Assembly (NCBI GenBank): GCA_047456295.1
Contig: CP179887.1
Span: forward strand, 431,159 to 495,158
Length of the DNA: 64,000 nucleotides
Origin: Candidatus Nealsonbacteria bacterium
Lineage (GTDB): Bacteria; Patescibacteriota; Minisyncoccia; Minisyncoccales; JANBVM01
Direction of reading: 5' to 3'
Below, in pieces: positions 27,812 through 56,338 of the stretch. Numbering within the stretch: the stretch's first letter is position 1; every line of letters starts with the position of its first letter. The position numbers and the translations under genes were made by a program. The notes beneath the pieces are model-generated. The model saw only the letters and a program-made list of their open reading frames with translations. It was not told where the DNA came from and ran no database searches.

Positions 27812-28546
27812 ATGTCAGGACACTCGCATGCCAAAACAGTAAAACACAAAAAAGAACTTAGCGCCAAAAAGAGGGGTCAGATTTTCTCTAAAATGGCTAG
27901 GTTAATTTCAGTTGCAGTAAAAGAAGGAGGTTCCAATCCTGATATTAATGCCAAACTACGAATGGCTATTGAAACAGCCCGTTATTATAAGATGCCCAAC
28001 AGTAATATTGAACGGGCAATAAAGAGAGGGAGCGGTGAATTGACAGGAGGAAAACTGGAAGAATTTCTTTTTGAGGCCTACGGTCCAGGTGGAACTGCCC
28101 TTCTTATTGAAGGAATCACTGATAATAAAAACCGGGCCCTGGGAGATGTTAAAAAAACCTTAAACCAGCATAATGGGAAAATGGTTGGAGAAGGAGCGGT
28201 AAGATGGATGTTTGAAAGAAAAGGATGTATAACCGTAAACCTTAAAAAACAAACCGAAGACCTACAAGATAAAGAAAAGCTAGAATTACAAGTAATTGAG
28301 TCTGGAGCTGAAGACGTTCAGTGGAACAATGATGATATGGATATCTATATCAGTGTTGAGGATTTAGAAAAAACAAAAAAGGTTTTAGAGCAAAAAGGCA
28401 TTAAAATCGAATCAAGCACCTTGGACTGGAAACCAAAAGAAACACTTAAACTAACAGAAAAAGACAAAGCTTCTTGTGTAAAACTTTTTGATGCTTTAGA
28501 TGAAAATGATAATGTTCAAGATATTTATTCTAATTTTAAATTATGA
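27812..28546 (+). CDS. yebC: YebC/PmpR family transcriptional regulator
   Basis: MSGHSHAKTVKHKK start and colinear YebC pattern. Confidence 0.9.
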   Translation: MSGHSHAKTVKHKKELSAKKRGQIFSKMARLISVAVKEGGSNPDINAKLRMAIETARYYKMPNSNIERAIKRGSGELTGGKLEEFLFEAYGPGGTALLIEGITDNKNRALGDVKKTLNQHNGKMVGEGAVRWMFERKGCITVNLKKQTEDLQDKEKLELQVIESGAEDVQWNNDDMDIYISVEDLEKTKKVLEQKGIKIESSTLDWKPKETLKLTEKDKASCVKLFDALDENDNVQDIYSNFKL

Positions 28547-29010
28547 TTATTCTGGGCATTGATCCTGGAACAGCCAGAACAGGTTATGGGATTATAAAAA
28601 AATCAAGGTTTTTAAAGTGTATAGATTATAATGTAATCTATACCAAACCTAATCCAAACGCAGGAAAACGTTTAAAAGAAATAAATAACAAGCTCTCTAA
28701 AATAATTAAAAAATATCAACCAGATATTTTAGCAATAGAAAACGTTTATTTTTTTAAAAATTTAAAGACAGCCATTCCTGTTTCTCAGGCAAAGGGAGCA
28801 ATTCTTTTGACAGCTGCAAAAAAGAACCTTCCTGTTTACGAATTCTCCCCTCTCCAGGTAAAACTGGCAGTCACCGGGAACGGACGGGCAGACAAGAAAG
28901 AGGTTCAGGAAAAAGTAAAAGAGATGCTTAAACTGAAAGAAATCCCAAAACCAGATGATGCAGCCGATGCCCTGGCCATTGCCATCACCTACCTTTTAAA
29001 AGAAGCTTAA
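28543..29010 (+). CDS. ruvC: Holliday junction resolvase RuvC
   Basis: ILGIDPGTARTGYG, AIENVYF, DAADALAIA. 4-nt overlap with yebC. Confidence 0.9.
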   Translation: MIILGIDPGTARTGYGIIKKSRFLKCIDYNVIYTKPNPNAGKRLKEINNKLSKIIKKYQPDILAIENVYFFKNLKTAIPVSQAKGAILLTAAKKNLPVYEFSPLQVKLAVTGNGRADKKEVQEKVKEMLKLKEIPKPDDAADALAIAITYLLKEA

Positions 29011-29038: not shown

Positions 29039-29066
29039 TTGACAAGGTTACTTGAACGCTTATAAT
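29039..29066 (+). promoter_or_regulatory. Near-consensus sigma70-type promoter
   Basis: TTGACA (29039..29044), 16-nt spacer, TATAAT (29061..29066). Confidence 0.5.
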
Positions 29067-29313: not shown

Positions 29314-30507
29314 TTAAATTATCTTTATAAATCTTCTCCTGCCAATCTTAATCACCGAACCCTTACTAATTTTAACAACTTCCTGCCAGTCTTTTTTCAA
29401 AACTCCGTCAATCTTTACAGCTTTTTGCAATATGAGTCTCTTTGCTTCTGATTTTGAGGAAACCAGTTTTGTTTCTACTAACAGGTCTAAGATATTAAAT
29501 CTTTCTTTTTTTATTTTTATTTTATTAATTTTTGAAGGTATTTTCTTTTCTCTAAAAACCCTGTTAAATTCTTGTTCAGCTCTTTCAGCTACATCTTTAG
29601 TATAATATATTCTAACTATTTCCTTTGCTAATTTGGCTTTTAAATCTCTTGGATTAACCTTTTTGGATTTTAATTCCTTTTCCATTCTTTTAATCTTTGA
29701 TAAGGGTATTTCACTACACAGCTCAAAATAATGAATAATTAATTTATCTTTAAGAGACATAATCTTTCCATACATTTCATCTGGTTTGTCGGTCAGATTA
29801 ACAACATTACCGTAACTCTTACTCATTTTCCTTCCATCTAAACCCAACAACAAGGGAACGGTTAAAATAAACTTTTTTTTATTATTGTAAATCTTTTGAA
29901 GTTTCCTTCCCACCAGCATATTAAAAGTCTGGTCTGTGCCCCCAACCTCTAAATCAATATTCATTGCAACAGAATCATATCCCTGCATTAATGGATACAA
30001 TAATTCACTCACCCATACCTCTTTTCCCTTTTTTAATCTTTCCTGAAACATATCCCTTTCCAAGAGACGAGATGTTGTGAAATGAGACGCTAGCTTTATC
30101 AAATCTCCAAACTTAAGTTTGGACAACCAATCATGATTATATTTAATTTTAATCTTAGAGATATCAAGAATCTTTGAAACCTGTTTTTTATAATCCAGTA
30201 TATTTTTTTTAATCTGAACTAAAGTAAGCGGTTTTCTTTTCTTGTCTCTTTTTGAAGGGTCTCCCAGTTGAGCAGTAAAGGTACCGATAAGGAAAATTAC
30301 CTCGTGTCCCAAATCTTGAAATTCTTTTAATTTCCTTAAAGGAACAGCGTTTCCCAGATGAATATTGGGTGAAGTCGGGTCAATACCAAGATAAAGCTTA
30401 ATCTTACGTTTCTGCATCAAACCCTTTAATTCCTTTTTACTGGGTAAAACCTGTTCAACCCTCCTAGTTAAGACCTCTTCAATTTTTCTAGGACTGGTAT
30501 TAAGCAT
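29314..30507 (-). CDS. tyrS: Tyrosyl-tRNA synthetase
   Basis: HLGN (NIHLGNAVP), KMSKS, and a C-terminal S4-like domain. Confidence 0.9.
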   Translation of the reverse strand: MLNTSPRKIEEVLTRRVEQVLPSKKELKGLMQKRKIKLYLGIDPTSPNIHLGNAVPLRKLKEFQDLGHEVIFLIGTFTAQLGDPSKRDKKRKPLTLVQIKKNILDYKKQVSKILDISKIKIKYNHDWLSKLKFGDLIKLASHFTTSRLLERDMFQERLKKGKEVWVSELLYPLMQGYDSVAMNIDLEVGGTDQTFNMLVGRKLQKIYNNKKKFILTVPLLLGLDGRKMSKSYGNVVNLTDKPDEMYGKIMSLKDKLIIHYFELCSEIPLSKIKRMEKELKSKKVNPRDLKAKLAKEIVRIYYTKDVAERAEQEFNRVFREKKIPSKINKIKIKKERFNILDLLVETKLVSSKSEAKRLILQKAVKIDGVLKKDWQEVVKISKGSVIKIGRRRFIKII

Positions 30508-38156: not shown

Positions 38157-41100
38157 TTAACCTGCTTCCTTGGCCTTTTTTATTCTTAGAACTTCTTCAG
38201 GGCTGGTGGTAATTATCTGGTCTTCGGTATAAGAAGCGACCACTTTCATTGCCACGTGCTTTTGTCCGGCAAAGAACATCCCCTCTCCTACCTCTGCTTC
38301 CAGCAATAAATACTTTTCTTCATCGGTTAGATTGAATGCTTTTTGGACAGCATCAATGGTGGCTGTCGACTGTTTCATTAAAACCTGCAAGGAAGAATTG
38401 GTAATGATTGGCTGTCCGTAATTGGATTTCATAAAGTCGTTAAGGTCCTGGGTAATGGTGGTTACTCCCAGCCAGTATTTTCTGGCTCTCTTGCAAATTC
38501 CAAAGAGAAAGGAAGCCCCATCTTCATTTTGCATTATCCACCAGGCTTCATCAACCACCAGGATTCTCTTTTTCAATTCTGACCTGACCTCGTTCCAGAT
38601 ATATCTCATAATAATAAACATTGCCATGGCCCTTAATTCATCTTCTATGTCCCTTATTCCAAAAACAACAAAGGGTTTATCCATTGAAATATTTGTGGGG
38701 TGATTGAAAAATTGAGCAAAGGTTCCTTTGGTGAACTTCCTCACCCTCCTGACCAATGATTCAGCCCCTTCCATTCCTTCTAAAACAGATTCAAGATCTT
38801 CCATTAAAGGTATTCTCTCTCTCCAGGTAGAGGGATCGGTCTCTGGGGTGATGTCTTTTGCAGCATAGGTTTCAGCTAAAGCCCGATCAATAATGGCATC
38901 TTCTTCTGGGGTCAATCCTCCCAGCATAATCCTTAAAAGTCCCACCAGATTAATAATGTTTGACCTTAACACGTCTTCTGGTTTTTCATCTTCCCTTGGT
39001 GTGGGTAGGTCAAAAGGATTAATATGACTCTGGGAAGCCAGAGAAATATTAAAGAAAGAACCTCCCACTGCATCAGACAGGTGTTTATATTCGTTTTCAG
39101 GGTCTAATACAATTACTTCCACCCCTGTCATCAAAGACCTTAAAATATCTAACTTGATGGCATAAGAGTTGTGAACAAACATTCCTGCAGTGCCTGCTAA
39201 AAACACTTCATTGTCAACAGTTAAATCATAAACATATTTATTGTTTTTGTTTCTAATTTTCTTAATTTTAACAATTGGATCCCAGAAAAGATCAGAGTTA
39301 GCTAATATTTTCAACTGAGCCAATTTTTCTTCAACCTGAGGGATTTTATTTACTAAAACATCTTGATAGTTTTGCCAGATAAATTGAGCAGATTTTTGAA
39401 TTGTTTTATAGCTTGTATTACCTTCAGGTTTTGTTACTAAAGCTGACCGGAGAGAGCTATTATAATTTTTCATTGGAATAGCCATTTCTTTAAAACCCAA
39501 ATGAATTGTTTCTTTAATCTTTTTTAAAGAGTAGGATTGGCCATTTACTGTTTCAATTAACCTAAAGGCGTTACAGCAAAAAGGATTAACTTCTCTGTTT
39601 TTAACAACCTGCCAGCTATGACCTAAAGCTTGCCATAAATCTCTATTTAATTCTTTATCATTCTTTCCTAAATTGATTATTGTGCTTAATTCTGGAAGTT
39701 CGGTTAAAACCCTAAAGGTAGAAGTTAAATCTTCAAAATACTGGATTCTTTGTTCAATTTTATTTATTACTTTTAACAGATGTTGAGGAGAAGGGCGGCG
39801 AACACCTCTTTTCCACTCAGAGATTTCTGTTATTCCATAAAGCTGAGGACCAAAAAGATCATGAATTTCTTTAAAAATAGTTTCTAATGTTGGAACAATG
39901 TCAACATTAGTATTACCTGTTTTTTTAATAATTTCAGAAAGCTGATCCCTTTTTCTTTTTGAAATAAAATTAATATCTTGTGCAAACTTCCTGAGATTAT
40001 CCTGGCCAGAAATAGTAAGCTTCCAGTAAGTCTTTTTGTGTTTCCAGCTAGGAATTTTCTTTTTTGTTTTTGAGGTTCTTGCAATGATTCCAAAAAAATA
40101 CAAAAGATAGCTAATTTCTGAAATTAACCTTTTGGATTTAGAGACAGCTGAAATATATGCATTAGCTTCTGTTCCTCCATCTCCTTCAAAATAAGCTGAT
40201 AGGTATTGGGCAATTTTTTGTTTTTCTAAATTAAATATGAATGGCCAGACTTTTTTTTGCTTTGATTTACCTTTTCCTCCTAAAGCCTTTACTATCTCTA
40301 TAAACACCCGAGAACTAGTAATTATGCCTCTATTATCATAATAAAAAGGAATCTTTAATTCAGAAAAAGAGGAATCTATTTCTTTAAGCACCTCTTTATC
40401 TTCATTACTTATAATTATGACATCTTCCCTAATAGTTCCTTCAGCTGTAATAAGGCCAGCTATTTTTAAAAATCCCGATGTAATCTGAAAATCAATATTT
40501 AAAGAATATTGCTTTTTCCCGTTTTTTGAAACAACCTTTAGATTTTTAAATTTTGGGTCATTAGGTTTAATCTTAAGATAATCTAAAATCTTCCAGAAAT
40601 ATTGAATAGGAATACGACGGCCAACTCTATATTTATAAAGATAACGATGGAGATTTTTATCTAAATTAGCCTTCTTTAAGGCTTCATAATTCTCTTCAAT
40701 CAGATATTCTCCACCAGCCACATAAATCCCTTTTGAATATCTAAGCAATTCTAAAAGATTTAAAGATTTTAAAGGAGAATCAGTTTCAGAAACCTGCCGG
40801 GGAACAGGAACAAATTCACCCTCTTTTATTTCAGAACCCTTGGCAGTCTTTATTTTTCCATTTTTTAAAACCAGCATATTATGATCACTTGTTGTAGTAA
40901 TTTTTCTGCCGCTTTGGGTAGTAAATTTATAAAAAACATTTGGTGCTTTTTTCCTGGCAGCTACTGTCACTTCTGACCACTTTGCTTTTAAGTTTTTATC
41001 AAAACTGTAAACTTTAATTTTAGGATCAATTACTCCTTCTAATTCTTCGTCAATTTTAGTTATTCCCTGTTTTTTAATTAATCCTTCAACCAAAGACCCT

Positions 41101-41933
41101 ATTTTTGTTAATTGAATTTCATTTCCATTCTTTATTAAGACTGGTTCAGATCCTAAAATTGACTTTCCTGAACCCGCCTTTCCGAATAAAACCTCATTGG
41201 CATTCTCTAAACCAAAACGGTCAAATAGAATAAGGGAATTGTTGTGTCTGTTGATACCATATAAAATCCCGTCATTAGAACTCAAATCAAAAGAAACAAA
41301 AGGAAAGGTTGAAGAAAGGGGGCCGGTATTCATTGAGGTATGGACCTGGAGCTGGTCCAAACCATAAGGAGCAGTGGAATTAAAACCTTCTCTTTGCTGG
41401 TAAAGGGAGGGTTTAATATAAATCAGTCTGGATTCCAGAATCGACCTCAGATTGGTTTCTATATCCCTTAATTCTTTAGGGGTGTTTCCATAGACGGTTA
41501 AATAAATGCCAAGCTTAAACATCCTTTCCTGGGCAGTTTGTAAGCTGTCCCTCAAAGATTCAAGGTCTTGATGGGCAACCTCTAGGACTGGATCCCTGAT
41601 CAAGCCTTTTTCTTGTCTTTCATTGATTTCAGCTATGACTTCTGCCACCTTTTTCCTTAATTTCTTTAAAATCATTCCGGTTTCAACAGGATGAATGTGT
41701 AATCCAATATTCATTGGGGTGTCCAGATTAATGATCGGAGAAAGCCAACCTGTGCTTATGTATCTGGGATAAGAGAAGATAAAAAAGGACCTAGACAATC
41801 TTTTGCCAAATTCCAAACGGTCCGGCCTCAAGGAAGTGAGAGAAGAAGGCGCAATAATGTCTTTTATCCCTATTGCCGGAGCTTCAAATATTTGTTCAGG
41901 TTTTTCTTTCTTTTTAAAAAAAGGAAATTTCAT
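38157..41933 (-). CDS. virB4: VirB4/TrbE-type T4SS ATPase, interrupted by an intein
   Basis: Walker A FGKAGSGK|S split by the intein, Walker B ILVVDEAWW, downstream TQDLNDF. The joined exteins are 593 aa. Confidence 0.85.
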   Translation of the reverse strand: MKFPFFKKKEKPEQIFEAPAIGIKDIIAPSSLTSLRPDRLEFGKRLSRSFFIFSYPRYISTGWLSPIINLDTPMNIGLHIHPVETGMILKKLRKKVAEVIAEINERQEKGLIRDPVLEVAHQDLESLRDSLQTAQERMFKLGIYLTVYGNTPKELRDIETNLRSILESRLIYIKPSLYQQREGFNSTAPYGLDQLQVHTSMNTGPLSSTFPFVSFDLSSNDGILYGINRHNNSLILFDRFGLENANEVLFGKAGSGKSILGSEPVLIKNGNEIQLTKIGSLVEGLIKKQGITKIDEELEGVIDPKIKVYSFDKNLKAKWSEVTVAARKKAPNVFYKFTTQSGRKITTTSDHNMLVLKNGKIKTAKGSEIKEGEFVPVPRQVSETDSPLKSLNLLELLRYSKGIYVAGGEYLIEENYEALKKANLDKNLHRYLYKYRVGRRIPIQYFWKILDYLKIKPNDPKFKNLKVVSKNGKKQYSLNIDFQITSGFLKIAGLITAEGTIREDVIIISNEDKEVLKEIDSSFSELKIPFYYDNRGIITSSRVFIEIVKALGGKGKSKQKKVWPFIFNLEKQKIAQYLSAYFEGDGGTEANAYISAVSKSKRLISEISYLLYFFGIIARTSKTKKKIPSWKHKKTYWKLTISGQDNLRKFAQDINFISKRKRDQLSEIIKKTGNTNVDIVPTLETIFKEIHDLFGPQLYGITEISEWKRGVRRPSPQHLLKVINKIEQRIQYFEDLTSTFRVLTELPELSTIINLGKNDKELNRDLWQALGHSWQVVKNREVNPFCCNAFRLIETVNGQSYSLKKIKETIHLGFKEMAIPMKNYNSSLRSALVTKPEGNTSYKTIQKSAQFIWQNYQDVLVNKIPQVEEKLAQLKILANSDLFWDPIVKIKKIRNKNNKYVYDLTVDNEVFLAGTAGMFVHNSYAIKLDILRSLMTGVEVIVLDPENEYKHLSDAVGGSFFNISLASQSHINPFDLPTPREDEKPEDVLRSNIINLVGLLRIMLGGLTPEEDAIIDRALAETYAAKDITPETDPSTWRERIPLMEDLESVLEGMEGAESLVRRVRKFTKGTFAQFFNHPTNISMDKPFVVFGIRDIEDELRAMAMFIIMRYIWNEVRSELKKRILVVDEAWWIMQNEDGASFLFGICKRARKYWLGVTTITQDLNDFMKSNYGQPIITNSSLQVLMKQSTATIDAVQKAFNLTDEEKYLLLEAEVGEGMFFAGQKHVAMKVVASYTEDQIITTSPEEVLRIKKAKEAG
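39168..41162 (-). mobile_element. Intein with LAGLIDADG homing endonuclease, in the VirB4 P-loop
   Basis: 665 aa. Ser1 (codon 41162..41160) begins SILGSEPVLIKNG. Block B is TTTSDHNML. LAGLIDADG-like motifs are LKIAGLITAEGTI and LSAYFEGDGG. It ends GMFVHN|S (Asn 39170..39168, +1 Ser 39167..39165). Confidence 0.85.
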
Positions 41934-42595: not shown

Positions 42596-43006
42596 TTATT
42601 TGGTTTTTGTTTCTATTTTTGTTTTAATTTTTTTCAACTGACTCTTTCCTGCTATTTTTAAGGGAAGTTCGTCTTTTTCTACTGGTTCTTGTTTTATCAC
42701 TCTTTCTTTGAAAACTGGTTTTTTTTCTTCCTTTTTCTTCCAGAGATACATTTTAGGTGAGAGATTGTATTTCAAAAAGTGTCCTAAAAGACCAGCAAGA
42801 GGGATACCTCCTATCTTTAAAAAAGCAAAAGCTAAAGCTATTCCTCCTAAAACAATGCAGGAGAGTATAAATATGCTGAAAGAAACAGTAAAATAAAGCA
42901 CAAAACAGATAGCTCCTGCAATACCCACAAAGATAAATTGTTTAAAGGTTAAAGGTCCCACTATCTTTGGTTCGTGTTCAATGAATTGGGGAATGGTAAA
43001 TCGCAT
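42596..43006 (-). CDS. PrgI/VirB3-like small membrane protein
   Basis: 136 aa. FTIPQFIEHEPKIVGPLTFKQFIFVG followed by two TM helices, as in the PrgI family from memory. Confidence 0.55.
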   Translation of the reverse strand: MRFTIPQFIEHEPKIVGPLTFKQFIFVGIAGAICFVLYFTVSFSIFILSCIVLGGIALAFAFLKIGGIPLAGLLGHFLKYNLSPKMYLWKKKEEKKPVFKERVIKQEPVEKDELPLKIAGKSQLKKIKTKIETKTK

Positions 43007-43630: not shown

Positions 43631-43840
43631 TTAAATAATGTAATTATTTAGTAATTGTACCATTTCATTTGGTGTTTTCCCATTTAAGACACAATACTCT
43701 AGAATCCTTCGTTTTTAATAATTTTATCAATAGTTCTTGTTTTAATCAAGATAGCTTGTTTTTCTAGCCTCCAATAGAGTTTAATGGTAGTTATGTTCTC
43801 TGGACAGGATTAGCCTGTCCAAACTTCTTTTATATGCCAT
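43631..43840 (-). pseudogene. Internally deleted relic of an IS481/IS3-like transposase gene
   Basis: Own translation: starts MAY (ATG 43840..43838), as in the 54962 copy, and ends EYCVLNGKTPNEMVQLLNNYII* (43699..43631), typical of an rve-integrase C-terminus. Stops and deletions lie in between. Confidence 0.45.
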
Positions 43841-43902
43841 ATACATATATTCTAACACTAGGGTAGTGCAAAGGTATTGAACCATAACAATTGCTTGACA
43901 AA
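43801..43902. repeat. Shared hairpin plus 71-nt left-end repeat with outward TTGACA (copy 1)
   Basis: Hairpin TGGACAGG-attag-CCTGTCCA at 43801..43821. 43832..43902 matches the reverse complement of 54900..54970 with 6 mismatches in 71 nt (hand alignment). TTGACA at 43895..43900 faces the gene at 43963. Confidence 0.65.
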
Positions 43903-43962
43903 GAAAAATAGTGTCATAGGATAAGCATAGAATTTAATATTAATAATAGGGAGTGAAATAAA

Positions 43963-44763
43963 ATGATTATTAGTAATGAAAAAGAAATTCAAGCTTTAGA
44001 AGAGGGTGGAATGAGTAACAAAGAATTAGAATACTGGAGGCAGTATTCAGAATTTATGATGAGCAAATATCGAGATGCCTACATTAACAGCCCTTATTTT
44101 CAAGAAGAACTCAGGGCAATTAATGAATTCATGGAACCAAAGGAGAAAGAAAGATGGTTAGACCTGGGATGCGGAGCACTGCCTGTTTCAGAACTCCTAC
44201 TAACCAAAAAGGTAGATTTGGAACTTTGGGCAGGAGATATTATTCTTGCACCAGCTGAAAAAAAGATTGAAGAGCTAGGAAATCCTCCGGTAAAGTTATT
44301 CTACATTGATTTGACAAAAAAACTAAAGATTCCAGATAACTTTTTTGACGGGATTGGAGCAAGTAAAGTTTTGCCCTATATACCAGAATCCCAAGGAGAA
44401 AAAGGAAAAGAGGCCTTAAGACAAATTTTTAAAGAATTATTCAGAATCTTAAAGCCAGGCGGAACATTAGTATGGAGTGGTTCAATAAAAAATGTCAGTA
44501 GATTTCGGGGAACCTTGCTGGCATTAGGATATATATTGAATCCTTACCAATGGATCAAACAGAGGTGCTTCTTACCAGTTTTTGCAGCAAAAGTAAACGA
44601 AGTTTTCAAACCAATGGTTGAGAAGATAAAAGAGGGCACATATCCTGTGCTTTCCCAAGAGGAGAACGAAGATATTATCCTTTCGGTTGGCTTTGAAAAT
44701 CCAGAGTGGAGGCTAACTTTCGGAAAACAAGTTGTAGTTAATAAAGTTACCAAACCCCTCTAA
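43963..44763 (+). CDS. Class I SAM-dependent methyltransferase (cargo gene)
   Basis: WLDLGCGALP motif I and LKPGGTLVWS. Looks like a small-molecule/protein MTase, not a DNA MTase. Confidence 0.7.
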   Translation: MIISNEKEIQALEEGGMSNKELEYWRQYSEFMMSKYRDAYINSPYFQEELRAINEFMEPKEKERWLDLGCGALPVSELLLTKKVDLELWAGDIILAPAEKKIEELGNPPVKLFYIDLTKKLKIPDNFFDGIGASKVLPYIPESQGEKGKEALRQIFKELFRILKPGGTLVWSGSIKNVSRFRGTLLALGYILNPYQWIKQRCFLPVFAAKVNEVFKPMVEKIKEGTYPVLSQEENEDIILSVGFENPEWRLTFGKQVVVNKVTKPL

Positions 44764-44834: not shown

Positions 44835-46478
44835 ATGGACATTCTTGCTTACTCAGGGTTCATAAATAGTTTCCTGGTGTTGGCTATAGGAGTTTTCGTC
44901 TATCTAAAAAGCAAGAGAGAGTTAAAAAATAAGCTTTTCTTTTTGCTTTGTTTTTCAGTGTTCATCTGGCAGGCCAGCTACGGTTTCTGGCAGATGGCCA
45001 AAAGCGAAGAGGAAAGCTTGTTTTTTCTTAGATTCATAACAATTAGCAGTGTTTTTTCCTCGGTCCTTTTCCTCCACCTCGTTTTAAGTATTCTGAGTAT
45101 AGTAAAGGAAAAAAAGCCACTCCTGCAGTGGGCTTATATAATCACTTTTGTAATTATTTCTTTAGTTTTTACTCCCTTTTATATCTCTGGTTTAAGAGAA
45201 TATCCTTTTTATCAGTATTGGCCGGTTGCAGGTTTTTCCACTCATGTGAATATAATTTGGGGATTGGTTTTGTCGGTTAGTGCCTTCAATCTACTAATAA
45301 AGAGATATAAAGAATCAAAAGGAGAGAGTAAAAATCAAATAGCTTATTTCCTTTTAGCCCTTTTCGTACTTTTTATTGGAGGGCTTTTTAACGTCCCACA
45401 ATGGTATGGGGTTCCGCTTTTCCCCTACGGTAATTTTTTGATTTTCCTATATCCCTTAATAATTGCTTTTGCAATCATCAGATATCATCTCTTTGAGATT
45501 AGAGTTATTTTAACTGAAATCTTGGTATTGATAATGGGTTTTGTACTGCTGATACTTCCATTCATTATGACAACGAGCTTTTTAAGAAATTTGACTATTA
45601 CCATCTTTATATCCTTTGTATTTTTAGGTTACTTACTAATTAGAAGTACACATCAGGAGGTTCAGAAAAGAAAGGAGGCAGAAGAATTAGCCAATAAACT
45701 CCAAAAAGCAAGCAGTGAGCTTCGAAAGGCCTATATTGAATTAAAAAAAGCTTCAGAAAATATCAAAGAACTATCCGAGATGAAGACAGAGTTTCTGAAG
45801 GTGGTAAACCATCAGTTAAGAACACCTGTTTCCATAATCAAAGGTATGTCTTCCATGTTAGTTGAGGGAACCCTAACAAAGAAAAAGCAAAAAGAGTATG
45901 TTAAAAAACTCTATCTTTCTTCTGAGAGACTGCACACTATCTTAGATGATATTTTAGTAGCTCAGAACTTGGCAGGAGGTCCTACCAGCGTTGAATTAAG
46001 GCCATGTAAGATAGAGGAGGTTATTGAAAGACTAGTTAATCACCAGAAATCTATAGCTGAAGTTAAGGGTTTGAAAATATCGTTCAGTAAACCAAAAGAA
46101 AACATTCCAATAGCCCTACTCGATGAAGAAATAATAAATAGAATAATATCTCGTTTAATTGATAATGCCATACTATATACAGATAAAGGGAAGATTGAGA
46201 TTTCTCTTGAATTAAAAGAAGAAAAGACTAAAAAATTCATCCAGATATCAGTTAAAGACTCAGGTATTGGCCTGGACAAAAAAGACAAAAAGAATCTCTT
46301 TAGACTCTTCCATAGAGGGGAAAAAGCTACCTCTTTACACCCCAATGGCTCAGGTTTAGGACTCTTTATTGTTAAAAACCTGATAGAATCCCATAAGGGT
46401 ACAGTTAAAGCTGAAAGTAAAGGCAGAGATAAGGGTAGTACCTTTGTTATTAGCTTGCCTTTTTTGACGGAAGTTTGA
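44835..46478 (+). CDS. Membrane sensor histidine kinase with N-terminal multi-TM domain, no cognate regulator nearby
   Basis: About 7-8 TM helices, coiled coil, H-box LKVVNHQLRTP, N box IDNAILYT, DSGIGL, GSGLGL. Confidence 0.85.
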   Translation: MDILAYSGFINSFLVLAIGVFVYLKSKRELKNKLFFLLCFSVFIWQASYGFWQMAKSEEESLFFLRFITISSVFSSVLFLHLVLSILSIVKEKKPLLQWAYIITFVIISLVFTPFYISGLREYPFYQYWPVAGFSTHVNIIWGLVLSVSAFNLLIKRYKESKGESKNQIAYFLLALFVLFIGGLFNVPQWYGVPLFPYGNFLIFLYPLIIAFAIIRYHLFEIRVILTEILVLIMGFVLLILPFIMTTSFLRNLTITIFISFVFLGYLLIRSTHQEVQKRKEAEELANKLQKASSELRKAYIELKKASENIKELSEMKTEFLKVVNHQLRTPVSIIKGMSSMLVEGTLTKKKQKEYVKKLYLSSERLHTILDDILVAQNLAGGPTSVELRPCKIEEVIERLVNHQKSIAEVKGLKISFSKPKENIPIALLDEEIINRIISRLIDNAILYTDKGKIEISLELKEEKTKKFIQISVKDSGIGLDKKDKKNLFRLFHRGEKATSLHPNGSGLGLFIVKNLIESHKGTVKAESKGRDKGSTFVISLPFLTEV

Positions 46479-46506
46479 TAATAACTACTCATTTCCTAAA
46501 AATAAT

Positions 46507-46536
46507 ACCTAATTTATTAGGTTTTTTGGCTTGACA
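46507..46536 (+). promoter_or_regulatory. Terminator hairpin of the kinase gene, immediately followed by a GCTTGACAAA promoter box
   Basis: ACCTAA-ttta-TTAGGT plus T-run (46507..46527), then TTGACA at 46531..46536 in the same GCTTGACAAA context as at 43893 and 48103. Confidence 0.5.
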
Positions 46537-46667
46537 AACTTTTCAGAAGGTCTTATGAAGAAAGTAGTAGGTAATATATTAATAATTATAGAAAGGAGGT
46601 TTTTAAAATTAAAAAGTGGGACAAGAAACTTCAGAAAGCAAATACCGCAAAGAAAATTATAAAGATC

Positions 46668-47633
46668 ATGATAAACGCACCGGAAGAATATAAAGATAAG
46701 GCTTGGCAACGACTTCTAAAACAAAAACTTGATTTTCCTTCTCTTGCTAAGATAATTAAGGAAGCACCAAAGGTATACAAAGATAAAATATGGCAGGCGG
46801 TTCTAAAACATAAACCTTGCTATGCCACTTTTGCACGGGACTTTATATCGAAACACGCTAATATTCCCATAGAATACAGAATTGAAGGTTGGAAGAACCT
46901 TGTCAAAGAGTGGGATGAATTTGATATTAGATTTATTGTTGATTTGAATTATCTTACAGAAAAATTCTGGGAAGAACTTCTGAAACAAAAACTCAACACA
47001 GATGAAATGTATGAGATAATTAGATGTGCTCCAGAAAAACACAAGAAAGAAGCTTGGGAGCGATTCTTAAAACTAGAAGCATACGATTGTAAACCCTGTC
47101 TGATAATGATGTGTAGGCATTCTTTAACAAGCAGTCACAGCATAGGATTTCCCGAAAACTATAAAATAAAAGTTTGGGAGGAGTTTCTAAAAAGAAAACC
47201 TGGTAACGATGAACTTTTTTTAGTTATAAAGAAAGCTCCAGAAAAGTACTACAGAACAAGGGCGTGGGAAGAACTCAGAAAGGGAACATTTATACCTAAT
47301 GATATCTGTATTAAAATTCTAAATAGAGGCGCTCCAAAATATAAATATGATTCTTATGGTGTTAAAGAAATTCTAAGTAGAGGCATTCCAATAAAATACA
47401 AAGATGAAGTTTGGGCACAGTTCTTAAAACAAAACCCCAGCAATTACGAACTTTTTTTAGTAATTGAAAAAGCTTCAGAAGAGTGTTACAAACTAAAAGC
47501 CTGGGATAAATTTTTAGAACAAAATCCCGATAGCAATGATTTAAACCTGGTAATTACCTTTGCTCCAGAGGAGTATAGTAAAAAAGCTCAAGAAGTTTTA
47601 AATAAAGTTTTAAAAAAAGAAATATATATCTAA
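46668..47633 (+). CDS. Novel alpha-helical tandem-repeat protein (about 30-aa APExYKxKAWxxFLKQxP units)
   Basis: About 10 repeats visible by eye. The C-terminal third is paralogous to 55129..56139. The reading frame is open from 46575, and the repeat pattern continues upstream of the ATG (see findings). Confidence 0.6.
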   Translation: MINAPEEYKDKAWQRLLKQKLDFPSLAKIIKEAPKVYKDKIWQAVLKHKPCYATFARDFISKHANIPIEYRIEGWKNLVKEWDEFDIRFIVDLNYLTEKFWEELLKQKLNTDEMYEIIRCAPEKHKKEAWERFLKLEAYDCKPCLIMMCRHSLTSSHSIGFPENYKIKVWEEFLKRKPGNDELFLVIKKAPEKYYRTRAWEELRKGTFIPNDICIKILNRGAPKYKYDSYGVKEILSRGIPIKYKDEVWAQFLKQNPSNYELFLVIEKASEECYKLKAWDKFLEQNPDSNDLNLVITFAPEEYSKKAQEVLNKVLKKEIYI

Positions 47634-47661
47634 GGGATAGTTTATAACTATCCATTTTTTT
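47634..47661 (+). terminator. Intrinsic terminator (shared with paralog at 55101..55127)
   Basis: GGGATAG-tttataa-CTATCC plus T-run. Confidence 0.6.
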
Positions 47662-47705
47662 ATTTCTGATCTAATTACAATGATTCTTCTGATTTTCAAG
47701 GAAAG
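47652..47705. repeat. Cassette end motif, copy A
   Basis: Contains ATCTAATTACAATGAT (47669..47684), identical to the reverse complement of 54075..54090. Similarity extends about 55 nt (..CTTCTG..TTT.AAGGAAAG). Confidence 0.65.
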
Positions 47706-47719
47706 CGCTGGGATTTTTA

Positions 47720-48049
47720 GCCACCCAAAAATTCGAAGTGGGAAGCCTTAATGCTTTCTCTTTTAAGAAGGATGGTTAATATATCAGGATTTAACTGTAT
47801 CTTATGTTTTAGTTTCCTTATTTTTCAACCAACTATTAAGGATATTCATTGGGATAGTGATGAAACCCTATTAATACAGGTATCAATCCCTGTATTCCTT
47901 TTTTCCATGTATGTAGACACCCATCTTTTTAAGGTACGATAAAAGAATGAAGGAATCTTAGCTATGTTTCTCAATGACTCTTTGCCTTCAAGGATAGGTT
48001 TAATCCATCAATATTTCTCTTCTTGGATTAAATTGGGCATAGTTTTCAT
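47720..48049 (-). pseudogene. N-terminal relic of an IS481/IS3-like transposase (HTH region)
   Basis: Own translation from ATG 48049: MKTMPNLIQEEKY*WIKPILEGKESLRNIAKIPSFFYRTLKRWVSTYMEKRNTG.., with an in-frame TGA and later frameshifts (..GLIPVLIGFHHYPNEYP.., ..LNPDILTILLKRE..). No catalytic domain follows. Confidence 0.5.
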
Positions 48050-48065
48050 ATGCCCTTAGATTATC

Positions 48066-48112
48066 AGAAAAGTGCAAAAAGTGTGTATACATTGACACAT
48101 GGGCTTGACAAA
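48066..48112 (+). promoter_or_regulatory. Diverged copy of the left-end/outward promoter module
   Basis: AGTGCAAAAAGTGT...GGGCTTGACAAA with TTGACA at 48105..48110, a 17-nt spacer and TGgTACTAT. It drives the gene at 48177. Confidence 0.5.
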
Positions 48113-48176
48113 TTAGAAACAAAGTGGTACTATTACATTACATTAAAAATTAAATATAACTAAAGGAGGAAAAAAA

Positions 48177-48524
48177 ATGACAGACCTTGCTGATTTATTA
48201 AAAGTAATAAAAGAAAAAAAAGAAAGTAAAGAATTTAAAAAACTCAAAAAAGATGTTGAAAAAGAACAGACTGCAATGGTATTAGAGTTATTGGTTAATT
48301 ATAAAATATTCGAGAGATTGGGGAAAGAATTCGACGACGCGATAGAAGAATTAGATAAGGAAAGACAAAAAGACACTTTGGACTTAGCAAAAATCAAAGC
48401 CGCAAAGACAAAATTAAAGACAGCTGAAAAAAAATACAAGGAAGACAAGAAAAAATGGCTATCGGAAAAAGAATTAGTTCGGATGAAATTGAAAAAAAGA
48501 AGTCATAGAAGAAAGTTAAAGTAA
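48177..48524 (+). CDS. Lys/Glu-rich coiled-coil protein, paralogous to the middle of 55129..56139
   Basis: AMVLELLVNYKIFERLGKEFD...KKWLSEKELVRMKLKKRS aligns with AMVTKLIAHYEISENLGKELD...RNWLLEKNLVRTRLKLKS. Strong SD AAGGAGG. Confidence 0.45.
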   Translation: MTDLADLLKVIKEKKESKEFKKLKKDVEKEQTAMVLELLVNYKIFERLGKEFDDAIEELDKERQKDTLDLAKIKAAKTKLKTAEKKYKEDKKKWLSEKELVRMKLKKRSHRRKLK

Positions 48525-53978: not shown

Positions 53979-54052
53979 GTTTTATTTTAACACAAAAACA
54001 AAATATATCCTGTTTGATTAACATGACCATCTTTTAATAACAAGCCCTAATC

Positions 54053-54109
54053 CTTTCCTTAAAAGAACAGAAGGATCATTGTAATTAGATTAAAAATAAA
54101 AAAAATTGG
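54053..54109. repeat. Cassette end motif, copy B (inverted relative to 47652..47705)
   Basis: ATCATTGTAATTAGAT at 54075..54090 is the reverse complement of the copy A core. Flanks are similar. Confidence 0.65.
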
Positions 54110-54122
54110 TGCTAGGCACCAA
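54098..54122 (-). terminator. Intrinsic terminator of the zinc-ribbon gene
   Basis: TTGGTGC-cta-GCACCAA followed by a T-run on the minus strand. Confidence 0.6.
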
Positions 54123-54152
54123 AAGAATATTTTTGTTTTAATTTAACTATTT

Positions 54153-54827
54153 TTAAACAGGAGTTTCCTTTAATTCTTTTACACGGTCTTCGACATTTAT
54201 TCCACAGAAAGGACAAAACGAGACTATTGATGTTAATTGTACTCCACAAGAGGGACAATAGAATTCACTTGCCTTTTCCTTAACTTGTGCAACCTTCGCG
54301 AGCTTCTCTTTTAATTCCTCAATTGTTTTTTTAGCTTCCTTTTCTACCTCTCTTTTAGCTTGTTCAATTTTTATTAGTTTCTCTTTTAAATCACTGATTG
54401 TTTTTCTAGTCTTTTTTCCTAGTTTCTCCTCTAATTTCTCTTCGGGTTTCCCCTTGGGCTTTATCTGTGTAATAGTGAATTGAATATGCTCATTTAACTT
54501 ATCTGTTGTTTTGTAAATAAGCCAATTACTTTTAATTCTATATTGAACCTTCCATTCTTTTTCCTCTTGACCATCAACTGCGGTTGACAAGATACCTTTT
54601 CTAAAACTACCACGATCATCCTCTATTACTACTCCCGCTTTACATTTTTTGCAAATCAATGATAAATAAATATAACGAGAAAAAACCCACGTTAGGCCAT
54701 TATTATTAACTCTAAATTTATTAGCTTTTATTTCTCCTCCACAACATTCATTATGAAACATTCTTAAATTTCTAAATTTTGTTTTCTTATACCCTTTTCT
54801 TTCTTCTACATTAATCGTAAAATCCAT
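54153..54827 (-). CDS. Zinc-ribbon / coiled-coil protein, function unknown (cargo gene)
   Basis: 224 aa. N-terminal Cys cluster (HNECCGG...CKKCKAG), central K/E coiled coil with a duplicated KEKL..I..A segment, and C-terminal CPSCG...CPFCG ribbon. Confidence 0.45.
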   Translation of the reverse strand: MDFTINVEERKGYKKTKFRNLRMFHNECCGGEIKANKFRVNNNGLTWVFSRYIYLSLICKKCKAGVVIEDDRGSFRKGILSTAVDGQEEKEWKVQYRIKSNWLIYKTTDKLNEHIQFTITQIKPKGKPEEKLEEKLGKKTRKTISDLKEKLIKIEQAKREVEKEAKKTIEELKEKLAKVAQVKEKASEFYCPSCGVQLTSIVSFCPFCGINVEDRVKELKETPV

Positions 54828-54899
54828 TTTTTTAAAACCTCCATTTGTTTTTATTTAATTGTAAATTTAATCTATCTCTTTCTACCTCATTTTTCCCAT

Positions 54900-54970
54900 T
54901 TTGTCAAACATATGTTATGATTCAATACCTTCGCACTACCCTAGTGTTAAAATATATGTATATGGCATAT
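54900..54970. repeat. 71-nt left-end repeat with outward TTGACA (copy 2)
   Basis: Reverse complement matches 43832..43902. TTGACA (complement of 54902..54907) faces the gene at 54827. Confidence 0.65.
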
Positions 54971-55057
54971 ACAAACAATCCAAAGCTTCCACAAGTAAGA
55001 ATGGAAGCTGTAAGACTTCTTCAAAAAGGTTGGTCAACATTCCCTACTAGAGTCTGA
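54962..55057 (+). pseudogene. 5' fragment of an IS481-like transposase gene
   Basis: MAYTNNPKLPQVRMEAVRLLQKGWSTFPTRV*. The N-terminal pattern (NP.LP.VR.EAV.L...GWS) matches IS481-type HTH N-termini as I recall them. It is truncated after 31 codons and followed by the hairpin 55068..55088. Confidence 0.5.
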
Positions 55058-55100
55058 ACAGGCTACCTGGACAGGCTAAGCCTGTCCAAAGAACAAAAAT

Positions 55101-55128: not shown

Positions 55129-56139
55129 TTAAATATAATACTTTCTTTTATTCAAAACTTTCAGAGCTTCTTTTCTATATTCTTCTGAAGCAAAGGTAAT
55201 CACCAGATTTAAATCATTGCCATCAGGGTTTTGTTCTAAAAATTTACTCCAAGCTTTTCTTTTGTACCCTTCTGGAATTTTCTCTTTCTCAATTGCTAAA
55301 AAAAGTTCGTAATTACTGGGGTTTTGCCTTAAGAACTTTTCCCACGCTTTTTCTTTGACTTCTTCTGGAGCTTTTTCTATTACTAAGAAAATTTCATAGG
55401 TAGTAAATGCTTGTTTTAAATGTTTTTTCCACTCGATGATTTTTCCCGGTTTTTCAAGTTTCCCTTTTTCTTCCCAAAGTTTGACCCAACGGCGATTTAA
55501 TTTAAGTATTCTTATTAATGCTTTATGAGGTAGTGTTCCTTCAGATTGCACTGATTTTAACTTCAGTCTCGTCCGAACTAAATTTTTTTCCAATAGCCAA
55601 TTTCTTTCTGCTTTCTCGTATTTTTCTTCAGATTCCTTTAAATCTTCTTCTGCTTTTTTTATTCCTTCTAAGTTTAAGGTGCCTTTTTCTATTCCCCTAA
55701 TTATTTTTTCCATCTTCCTGTCGAGTTCTTTCCCCAAGTTCTCTGATATTTCATAATGAGCTATTAATTTTGTTACCATTGCAACCCGCTCTTTCTTTTT
55801 AAGTTCTTTAAATGCTTCCGGGGCATCTCTTATAATTTCCATAATTTCCTCTGGAGTATTTGTTCTCTGAAGTTTTTTATCCCAGCCTTTAATTCTTGAT
55901 CTAATTTTTAACCCCCACTTTTTTCTTTTTGGTCTTCCTCCTTCTCCAGCCTTCTCTAACCAAGAATCAAGAACAACAATAGTTAAAGGGATACTTACTA
56001 TGAAGTCAATAACAATCCAGATAATCGCGTATAGTCCCGGTCCCAAAAAAGCGCTAGGTATAGAAAGTATAGAAAAAATGAAAGAGAATACAAAAAACCC
56101 TCCAATAACCAAACCAATAACATCACCAACTTTACCCAT
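55129..56139 (-). CDS. Membrane-anchored fusion paralog: 2 TM + coiled coil (48177-like) + helical repeats (46668-like)
   Basis: N-terminal two hydrophobic helices. The middle aligns with the 48177 protein. The C-terminus shares the runs QNPSNYELFL, KFLEQNPD and NDLNLVITFA with the 46668 protein. Confidence 0.5.
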   Translation of the reverse strand: MGKVGDVIGLVIGGFFVFSFIFSILSIPSAFLGPGLYAIIWIVIDFIVSIPLTIVVLDSWLEKAGEGGRPKRKKWGLKIRSRIKGWDKKLQRTNTPEEIMEIIRDAPEAFKELKKKERVAMVTKLIAHYEISENLGKELDRKMEKIIRGIEKGTLNLEGIKKAEEDLKESEEKYEKAERNWLLEKNLVRTRLKLKSVQSEGTLPHKALIRILKLNRRWVKLWEEKGKLEKPGKIIEWKKHLKQAFTTYEIFLVIEKAPEEVKEKAWEKFLRQNPSNYELFLAIEKEKIPEGYKRKAWSKFLEQNPDGNDLNLVITFASEEYRKEALKVLNKRKYYI

Positions 56140-56338
56140 CTTTTAAGATACCTCCAAGATATTTTATTTTTAATGTAATTTTATTCTATTTGTCTTCTAT
56201 CACCTCTTTGAATTTTTGTCAAAAGCCTTCAATTACTTTACAAAGCTAAGAGTGGTCAATATCTATCTGAATCTGGACATCGCTGATTTAAGACTTGACA
56301 ATTCTATTCAGTATTAGAAAATAGAAGAATAAGGAAAG

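Follow-up and report, generated by a model that had tools for sequence, protein, structure and literature searches.

Promoter-adjacent insertion has been described for TnGBS, ISLre2 and ISKra4, elements with Mutator-like DDE transposases that insert in one orientation, 15–17 bp upstream of the −35 element of sigma-A promoters, and leave the core promoter intact (PMC3942029). This behaviour was termed an atypical specificity among prokaryotic elements, and contact with the polymerase was proposed for TnGBS; IS481 is not mentioned there (PMC3942029). These elements are the closest precedent for the loci described here, in which the same promoter-upstream, oriented insertion was found (52/58 and 28/32 loci in two subfamilies, with a −10 element in 66%). 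The likeness is one of behaviour and not of membership, since the transposase is of the rve/IS481 type here, without a Mutator-like (p-MULT) transposase. The distance to the −35 element is 5–8 nt here, with the target duplication abutting the hexamer in one subfamily, against 15–17 bp there, and the hosts are Patescibacteria here, whereas Firmicutes and others are the hosts there.

Insertion sequences (IS) that bring fusion promoters or outward promoters with them form a second precedent and include IS1, IS2, IS30, IS257, ISAba125, IS481 and others (PMC9330008). There, as here, an IS end adjoins a promoter that reads into the neighbouring gene. In those systems the −35 element, or even the entire promoter, is part of the IS, whereas both hexamers lie in flanking DNA at the loci described here.

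Like IS481, the type element from Bordetella pertussis, the present elements carry a single transposase ORF with helix-turn-helix, leucine-zipper-like and rve domains, and like the IS481 family they have terminal inverted repeats, with duplications of 4 or 6 bp. The sequence duplicated by IS481 itself is NCTAGN, and outward promoters are a known feature of that element. The inverted repeats of the present elements contain TTCAATAG, a motif that IS481 also has near its left end, within GATTCAATAGGTTG. Target duplications of the IS481 family are mostly 6 bp and sometimes 4 bp, and the IS1202 group was placed inside the IS481 radiation (PMC10045372). Members of the IS1202 group target dif/pdif sites, where they lie in a single orientation at 5 bp from the sequence bound by XerC (PMC10132070); taken with the placement of the group, this shows that the IS481 transposase lineage can evolve base-pair-exact targeting from a short site. 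Here, however, recombination sites rather than promoters are the target, and the elements of the IS1202 group are longer (~1.5 kb). In the literature searched, no description of promoter-adjacent specificity was found for IS481-like elements.

The window analysed here, a 64,000-nt stretch of contig CP179887.1 from a Candidatus Nealsonbacteria bacterium, contains three decayed copies of such elements. The reading preferred here, with a probability of about 0.8, is that sigma-70-type promoters already in place are the targets of an IS481-like clade from Patescibacteria, whose members integrate at the upstream edge of the promoter and always in the same orientation, and that the three copies in the window lie at such places. 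On this sequence evidence, the promoters are best regarded as landing sites and not as cargo of the element.

Boxes and element remnants in the window

TTGACA hexamers at 43895(+), 54907(−), 48105(+) and 56222(−) define sites 1, 2, 3 and 4, respectively. They are followed after 16–17 nt by TAGGAT, TAGAAA, TACTAT and TAGAAG, and further downstream by ORFs starting at 43963, 54827, 48177 and 56139, each with a GGAG-type Shine-Dalgarno sequence. An earlier note on this DNA had proposed a common design of TTGACA box and −10 element for the four sites. The boxes, their 16–17 nt spacing, the Shine-Dalgarno sequences and the gene starts were all recovered; the −10 elements of sites 2 and 4 are poor, with the final T missing from both, and both fail a standard promoter scan. 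The leader of 55–65 nt given in the note corresponds to the distance from box to ATG, which is 62–77 nt at the four sites, and the predicted leaders are about 32–47 nt long. Also claimed had been the reuse of one design for a set of accessory genes. This did not hold, since site 4 and the equally good boxes at 46531, 37125 and 5501 stand without an IS, so that the box design is not specific to the four genes. Within the window, CTTGACAAA was counted 5 times against 1.06 expected, and the nhmmer family profiles gave no match at site 4. Sites 3 and 4 have a 21-nt leader match in common, which reflects the paralogy of their genes; site 4 and the 46531 box are best read as plain promoters. Judged by their consensus matches, the boxes in the window are predicted to function as promoters. 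The coordinates of boxes and remnants are collected in Table 1.

Table 1. Putative element remnants, shared blocks and promoter-like boxes in the window
Feature	Coordinates	Strand	Basis or context
Second IS481-like transposase gene, of the MKTMP type: internal fragment	43696..43786	−	nhmmer profile positions 314–404, E 3.4e-7
Second block common to sites 1 and 2, perfect hairpin GGACAGGATTAGCCTGTCC at 43802–43820	43794..43821		28 nt, 93% to 55068–55095
Decayed MAYT-type IS481-like left end (site 1)	43825..43889	−	Left inverted repeat, tip 43889; nhmmer profile positions 2–63, E 2e-9 (match 43888–43828), envelope 43889–43825
5-nt spacer, IS tip to −35 (site 1)	43890..43894	+	Same place as the target-site duplication in intact relatives; family offset 5–6 nt
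Promoter-like TTGACA-16-TAGGAT, outside the IS (site 1)	43895..43922	+	Upstream of methyltransferase gene 43963–44763 (Pfam Methyltransf_11)
Fifth box, same design: GGCTTGACAAAC-17-TATGAA	46531..46559	+	Upstream of gene 46668; directly after a terminator; without IS; absent from the list in the earlier note
MKTMP-type IS481-like left end and ~105 degenerate codons (site 3)	47727..48096	−	nhmmer profile positions 4–351, E 3.7e-29 (match 48093–47749); alignment A7
8-nt spacer ACATGGGC, then promoter-like TTGACA (48105–48110)-17-TACTAT (site 3)	48097..48133	+	Upstream of gene 48177–48524
Promoter-like TTGACA-17-TAGAAA, weak −10 (site 2)	54879..54907	−	Upstream of zinc-ribbon gene 54827–54153 (Pfam zinc-ribbon)
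Second MAYT-type left end, tip 54913 (site 2)	54913..55040	+	nhmmer profile positions 2–126, E 2.2e-23 (match 54914–55037); alignment A6
Hairpin-block copy, GGACAGGCTAAGCCTGTCC at 55069–55087	55068..55095		Adjoins terminator of gene 55129–56139
Site 4: TTGACA-17-TAGAAG	56194..56222	−	Upstream of gene 56139–55129; without IS remnant

A weak match to the Rfam lysM-TM7 RNA at 46453–46598(+), below threshold (27 bits, E 0.15; the gathering score is 61.5), overlaps the 46531 box upstream of gene 46668. A small-RNA or riboswitch reading of the sites was dropped, with no Rfam family found at any site at gathering and E-value thresholds. Elsewhere, a perfect TTGACA-16-TATAAT promoter-like site was noted at 29039–29066(+), after the end of gene 28543–29010; no ORF of at least 90 aa lies between it and the convergent gene 29314–30507, and a small RNA or small peptide may be expressed from this site. 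The genes at 46668–47633(+), 48177–48524(+) and 55129–56139(−) belong to a rapidly rearranging paralogous family with (K/E)AWE.FL.QNP-type repeats and a coiled-coil module, with inverted copies at 71–83% DNA identity, common terminators and leaders common to two genes. The gene at 38157–41933(−) encodes a 1258-aa TraG/VirB4-type P-loop ATPase interrupted by an intein with a LAGLIDADG homing endonuclease (Pfam Intein_splicing, LAGLIDADG_3, P-loop_TraG), and a PrgI-like gene lies at 42596–43006.

Sites 1 and 2 were compared by aligning 43832–43902 with the reverse complement of 54900–54970, and the 6 mismatches in 71 positions reported in the earlier note were reproduced exactly; the repeat finder gave 75 nt at 91% and blastn an E-value of 4e-22. 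Broken down by part, the IS portion had 58/62 identical positions, the spacer 2/5, the box 8/8 and the sequence beyond the box 24/60, a pattern that argues for two landings beside two promoters and against a carried promoter. At both sites TTGACA starts 5 nt beyond the tip. The site-1 remnant keeps the extended −10 element of the transposase gene, TGTTAGAAT, and its start codon (43840–43838), with only about three codons left; it was also matched by the left-end HMM (E 1e-6), in agreement with alignment A6. At site 2 the transposase gene survives from its start at 54962 through codon 26, MAYTNNPKLPQVRMEAVRLLQKGWST, beyond which sequence has been deleted (peptide at 54962–55054); the counterpart of this peptide in the intact homologue L031 is the start of its 293-aa transposase, MAYTSNPQIGRVRLEAVKLLRKGWSTRKVARHLGY. 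The conserved 62-nt block of sites 1 and 2 consists of the left inverted repeat together with the transposase's own promoter (extended −10) and start codon. Throughout the MAYT clade the transposase gene is preceded by an extended −10 element, TGTTAAAAT or TGTTAGAAT, with 8 nt between its end and the ATG (alignment A6; 43838–43852, 54950–54964), and lacks a Shine-Dalgarno sequence; the mRNA is probably leaderless.

The second block common to sites 1 and 2 contains a hairpin with a perfect 7-bp stem, GGACAGG-N5-CCTGTCC, and agrees with the family right end at 11/16 positions. It was not reported by the right-end HMM, its two copies ranked 136 and 2933 of 128,000 with the PWM, and it was found nowhere else in viral_contigs and the fetched loci. 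The block may be the diverged right end of an internally deleted copy, in which case the copies at sites 1 and 2 would measure 96 bp and 183 bp; a MITE-like history is possible for both. The gap between the two shared blocks is ~10 nt at site 1 and ~115 nt at site 2, so the internal deletions differ. No target duplication was found around the window copies (TAGTTA vs ATTGC; ACATA vs AAAAT). The 43696–43786 fragment lies in the same intergenic region and orientation as the site-1 remnant and is stacked behind it. Considered and rejected was an insertion of a ~1-kb unit (IS stump, promoter and zinc-ribbon gene, 54105–55089) with an 18-nt duplication: with the right-hand boundary of the IS in place, nothing but two terminator T-runs was left of the apparent repeat.

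The remnant at site 3 has its tip at 48096 and its start codon at 48049–48047. Mutation of the tip, ATTACC in the family but ATTGAC here, has given rise to a spurious first TTGACA at 48092 (alignment A7); the TTGACA at 48105 starts 8 nt beyond the tip. An HMMER search with the remnant peptide (47849–48007, minus strand) returned four proteins, the best being P0001 (E 1.8e-6, 59% identity), and the matched proteins have Pfam HTH_28, HTH_32 and LZ_Tnp_IS481, that is, IS481-type N-termini. The earlier note had regarded 48066–48112 as a diverged copy of site 1. This was not borne out by blastn-short, which found nothing, or by local alignment, for which p was 0.003 when the box was included and 0.058 when it was left out; the segment belongs to a sister IS subfamily. 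A segment at 47655–47790, consisting of a T-run, ~40 nt and a short MKTMP-type transposase fragment, is duplicated in inverted orientation at 54010–54104, just upstream of ksgA (start 53978), and the ksgA promoter may once have carried the same MKTMP-type IS.

The adjacency of transposase remnants to three of the four boxes, which had been part of the original claim, is thus supported by nhmmer (E 2e-23, 2e-9 and 4e-29 for sites 2, 1 and 3). As judged from their homology, the three remnants are decayed insertions from two sister subfamilies of an IS481-like IS, MAYT-type at sites 1 and 2 and MKTMP-type at site 3.

Element family, ends and target-site duplications

Species-representative genomes were scanned with an alignment of the four proteins matched by the site-3 peptide, which yielded 37 loci, mostly from Patescibacteria. 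For the L031 transposase, 6451 relatives were obtained at E ≤ 1e-20, and 80 more loci were fetched from metagenomes. The nhmmer family profiles were built from full-length elements. Intact elements are ~0.93–1.0 kb long, with ~27-nt inverted repeats and a single transposase of 290–316 aa (rve/DDE core and N-terminal helix-turn-helix). With Pfam, rve, rve_3, HTH_28, HTH_32 and LZ_Tnp_IS481 were found among L002 and L031, which are intact relatives, and P0001 and P0004. IS481 was the best NCBIfam model for all three tested transposases, with two of the three below the curated cut-off (NF033577, cut-off 224 bits; L002 233.7, L016 214.7, L031 192.6).

Pfam, NCBIfam and PHROGs gave nothing significant for the pseudo-peptides, the best match being the PHROGs transposase phrog_151 (E 0.11), and word-indexed protein searches with the short pseudo-peptides gave no candidates. 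The 26-aa site-2 peptide gave only matches at E 4 in a tblastn search against plasmids, and an exact DNA pattern scan for the 75-nt core gave 0 matches in genome_contigs and metagenome_contigs.

The ends were defined from full-length copies. The closed genome OY970175.1 has seven copies, whose conserved stretch runs from GGTACTCTGCAC, at 47 nt from the ATG, to GACATGAAACA. Their flanks are unrelated, and in six copies both ends are directly abutted by a 4-bp direct repeat (TCTT, GCAA, GGGC, AACG, ACAA, TGCT). The terminal inverted repeats are CGTAATGGTTCAATAGCTTGG and the reverse complement CGTTTTCTGGTCAATAGCTTGG. Elements of the MAYT subfamily begin with CGTAATGGTTCAATAGC (tip CGTAATGG) and end with GCTATTGAC or TTAGAAAACG (tip AGAAAACG); several contigs begin exactly at the MAYT left end CGTAATGG. 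In 12/58 MAYT loci the 6 nt before the left tip are found again, unchanged, close to the right end; 500 permutations gave a mean of 1.0 such loci and never more than 6. Nine of these 12 recurring spacers sit directly after the right tip, and L031 is among the 12 (TAATAT). The duplication is therefore taken as 6 bp in the MAYT subfamily and 4 bp in the sister subfamily. An initial guess that TGTCAA forms the IS terminus was excluded by the tips that these duplications define.

Ten places with the identical transposase P0048 have differing flanks, and their 6-nt repeats pair across contigs (TATTGG, TAGTTT), which shows that chimeric assembly across the repeat affects many metagenome contigs. That only about a quarter of the metagenome loci have a matched duplication is probably explained by such chimeric assembly. 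Among the P0048 copies (L125–L134) and the relatives of the L031 transposase, many assemblies hold the IS alone, in contigs of ~936–954 nt collapsed at the repeat ends; longer contigs are often chimeric, and the left flank of one then pairs, by the 6-nt duplication, with the right flank of another.

Box position across the family

The left flanks of the MAYT subfamily were searched for TTGACA. With at most one mismatch, the hexamer was found 5–6 nt outside the tip in 52/58 metagenome loci (90%), compared to 3.6% of random windows; 41 of the 52 have it at 6 nt and 11 at 5 nt. Exact TTGACA at these offsets was found in 36/58 loci, compared to 0.3% of random windows. A −10-like hexamer follows at 16–18 nt from the box in 38/58 loci (66%; controls, 8%) and is TG-extended in 21/58 (controls, 0.6%). 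The right flanks gave 3/36, which equals background. In the sister subfamily, the box was present within one mismatch in 28/32 loci, in 26 of the 32 at exactly 8 nt from the tip. The flank consensus reads ATTACG/NNNNNN/TTGACAAA-N8-AAT-N-TGNTANAAT. A sub-clade formed by L013, L020 and L021, with transposases starting MSVNMAKTIQEERFRWIKP or similar, has an outward TTGAC box 5–8 nt from the right end and not from the left, which suggests that the targeting end was switched during evolution in this sub-clade.

In intact relatives the target duplication sits between the tip and the hexamer, and the hexamer is therefore target DNA. The earlier note was right in taking the conserved block for an IS terminal region, and in the systematic association of such regions with outward-facing TTGACA boxes. 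Its further proposal, that the IS supplies the −35 element, is at odds with the profile-defined tips, outside which the hexamer starts at 5–8 nt. The terminus thus lies elsewhere than the note had assumed, an outcome that it had itself named as speaking against its model; it had envisaged a box internal to the element, and the box is external.

The copies in OY970175.1 adjoin unrelated promoters, including those of hisG and glmS. Copies with identical transposase adjoin TTGACA, TTGAAA, TTGATG, TTGACT, TTGATA and TTTACA, so that the hexamer varies as natural −35 elements do, and a TG-extended −10 element is near-universal beside them.

These observations are consistent with the following mechanism. 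The TTGACA boxes would belong to the host, and elements of the clade would integrate in a single orientation immediately upstream of the −35 element of sigma-70-type promoters. The left tip would come to lie 5–6 nt from the hexamer where the duplication is 6 bp and 8 nt from it where the duplication is 4 bp, and the transposase gene would diverge from the host gene. The core promoter would be left intact and genes unbroken; for this reason copies would persist and later decay in place. The evidence for the promoter as target consists of remnant homology, tip positions, family-wide geometry, duplications, and the unrelated flanks of copies from the same genome or with identical transposase. We infer that the three window copies arrived by promoter-upstream integration.

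Alternative readings and significance

The alternative that survives best, although unlikely, concerns the window alone. Sites 1 and 2 could be copies of one segment (hairpin block, IS stump and −35 element) that was spread by recombination in the genome, so that the box is shared by common descent. The two blocks common to both sites are 93–94% identical, the 44–56 kb region is full of inverted paralogous segments (I1–I6), and an IS fragment of the other type is also duplicated upstream of ksgA. A duplicated segment, however, would not be expected to lose identity (2/5) exactly at the family-defined tip and to regain it only for the 8-nt box. The internal deletions between the blocks also differ (~10 nt vs ~115 nt), and the geometry at sites 1 and 2 equals that of ~80 independent loci. 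A small share of the weight is left to this reading because neither window copy has a target duplication and the hairpin block is shared.

Somewhat less probable is an origin without active targeting, in which insertion is random and purifying selection in gene-dense genomes spares only promoter-upstream copies. With 89% of the window coding, most random insertions would be lethal or costly, and the variation of the −35 element among identical copies is that of natural promoters. Selection of this kind cannot, however, produce single-base-pair spacing (26 of 28 at 8 nt in one subfamily; 41 and 11 of 52 at 6 and 5 nt in the other), nor a single orientation with right flanks at background, and other intergenic positions would be equally harmless. 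Spacing and orientation thus appear too exact for selection alone.

The least probable reading is that of the earlier note, in which the IS terminal repeat carries an outward −35 element and insertion forms fusion promoters that activate neighbouring accessory genes: outward −35 elements in IS ends and complete outward promoters are well documented, including for IS481 (PMC9330008), and the box is identical (8/8) at sites 1 and 2, but the hexamer lies 5–8 nt beyond the tip with the duplications in between, the spacer and the sequence after the box are unrelated between copies, the flank carries the −10 element as well, often TG-extended, and the flanking promoters serve housekeeping genes.

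Under the preferred reading of promoters as landing sites, target choice is presumably active, by read-out of TTGAC(A) or by way of promoter-bound RNA polymerase. Direct read-out of TTGAC(A) would parallel the IS1202-group relatives. The natural variation of the −35 element beside identical copies, together with the near-universal TG-extended −10 element, leans towards contact with RNA polymerase.

IS stumps beside strong promoters in these genomes should accordingly not be read as IS-driven gene activation. Homing to the upstream side of promoters has so far been tied to one transposase lineage, and a case with an rve/IS481 transposase and tighter spacing permits comparison of the recognition mechanism. 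Even odds may be given to the wider proposition that integration in a fixed orientation and exact to the base pair, at the upstream edge of sigma-70 −35 hexamers, evolved in a large IS481-like clade centred on Patescibacteria; promoter homing would then have arisen twice independently, the other case being the Mutator-like TnGBS, ISLre2 and ISKra4.

If this wider proposition is true, each copy would mark a genuine promoter in organisms without experimentally mapped promoters, and hundreds of independent insertions would provide a catalogue, drawn from sequence only, of promoter positions in Patescibacteria together with their consensus, TTGACAAA-N-TGnTAnAAT. In that case the transposase or its interaction with RNA polymerase would also offer a compact device, of natural origin, for promoter-adjacent insertion. 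Insertion at such places as a safe-harbour strategy would explain how many IS copies are tolerated in streamlined, ~89%-coding genomes, and why several remnants can accumulate at one promoter, of which the stacked fragments at 43696–43889 are an example.
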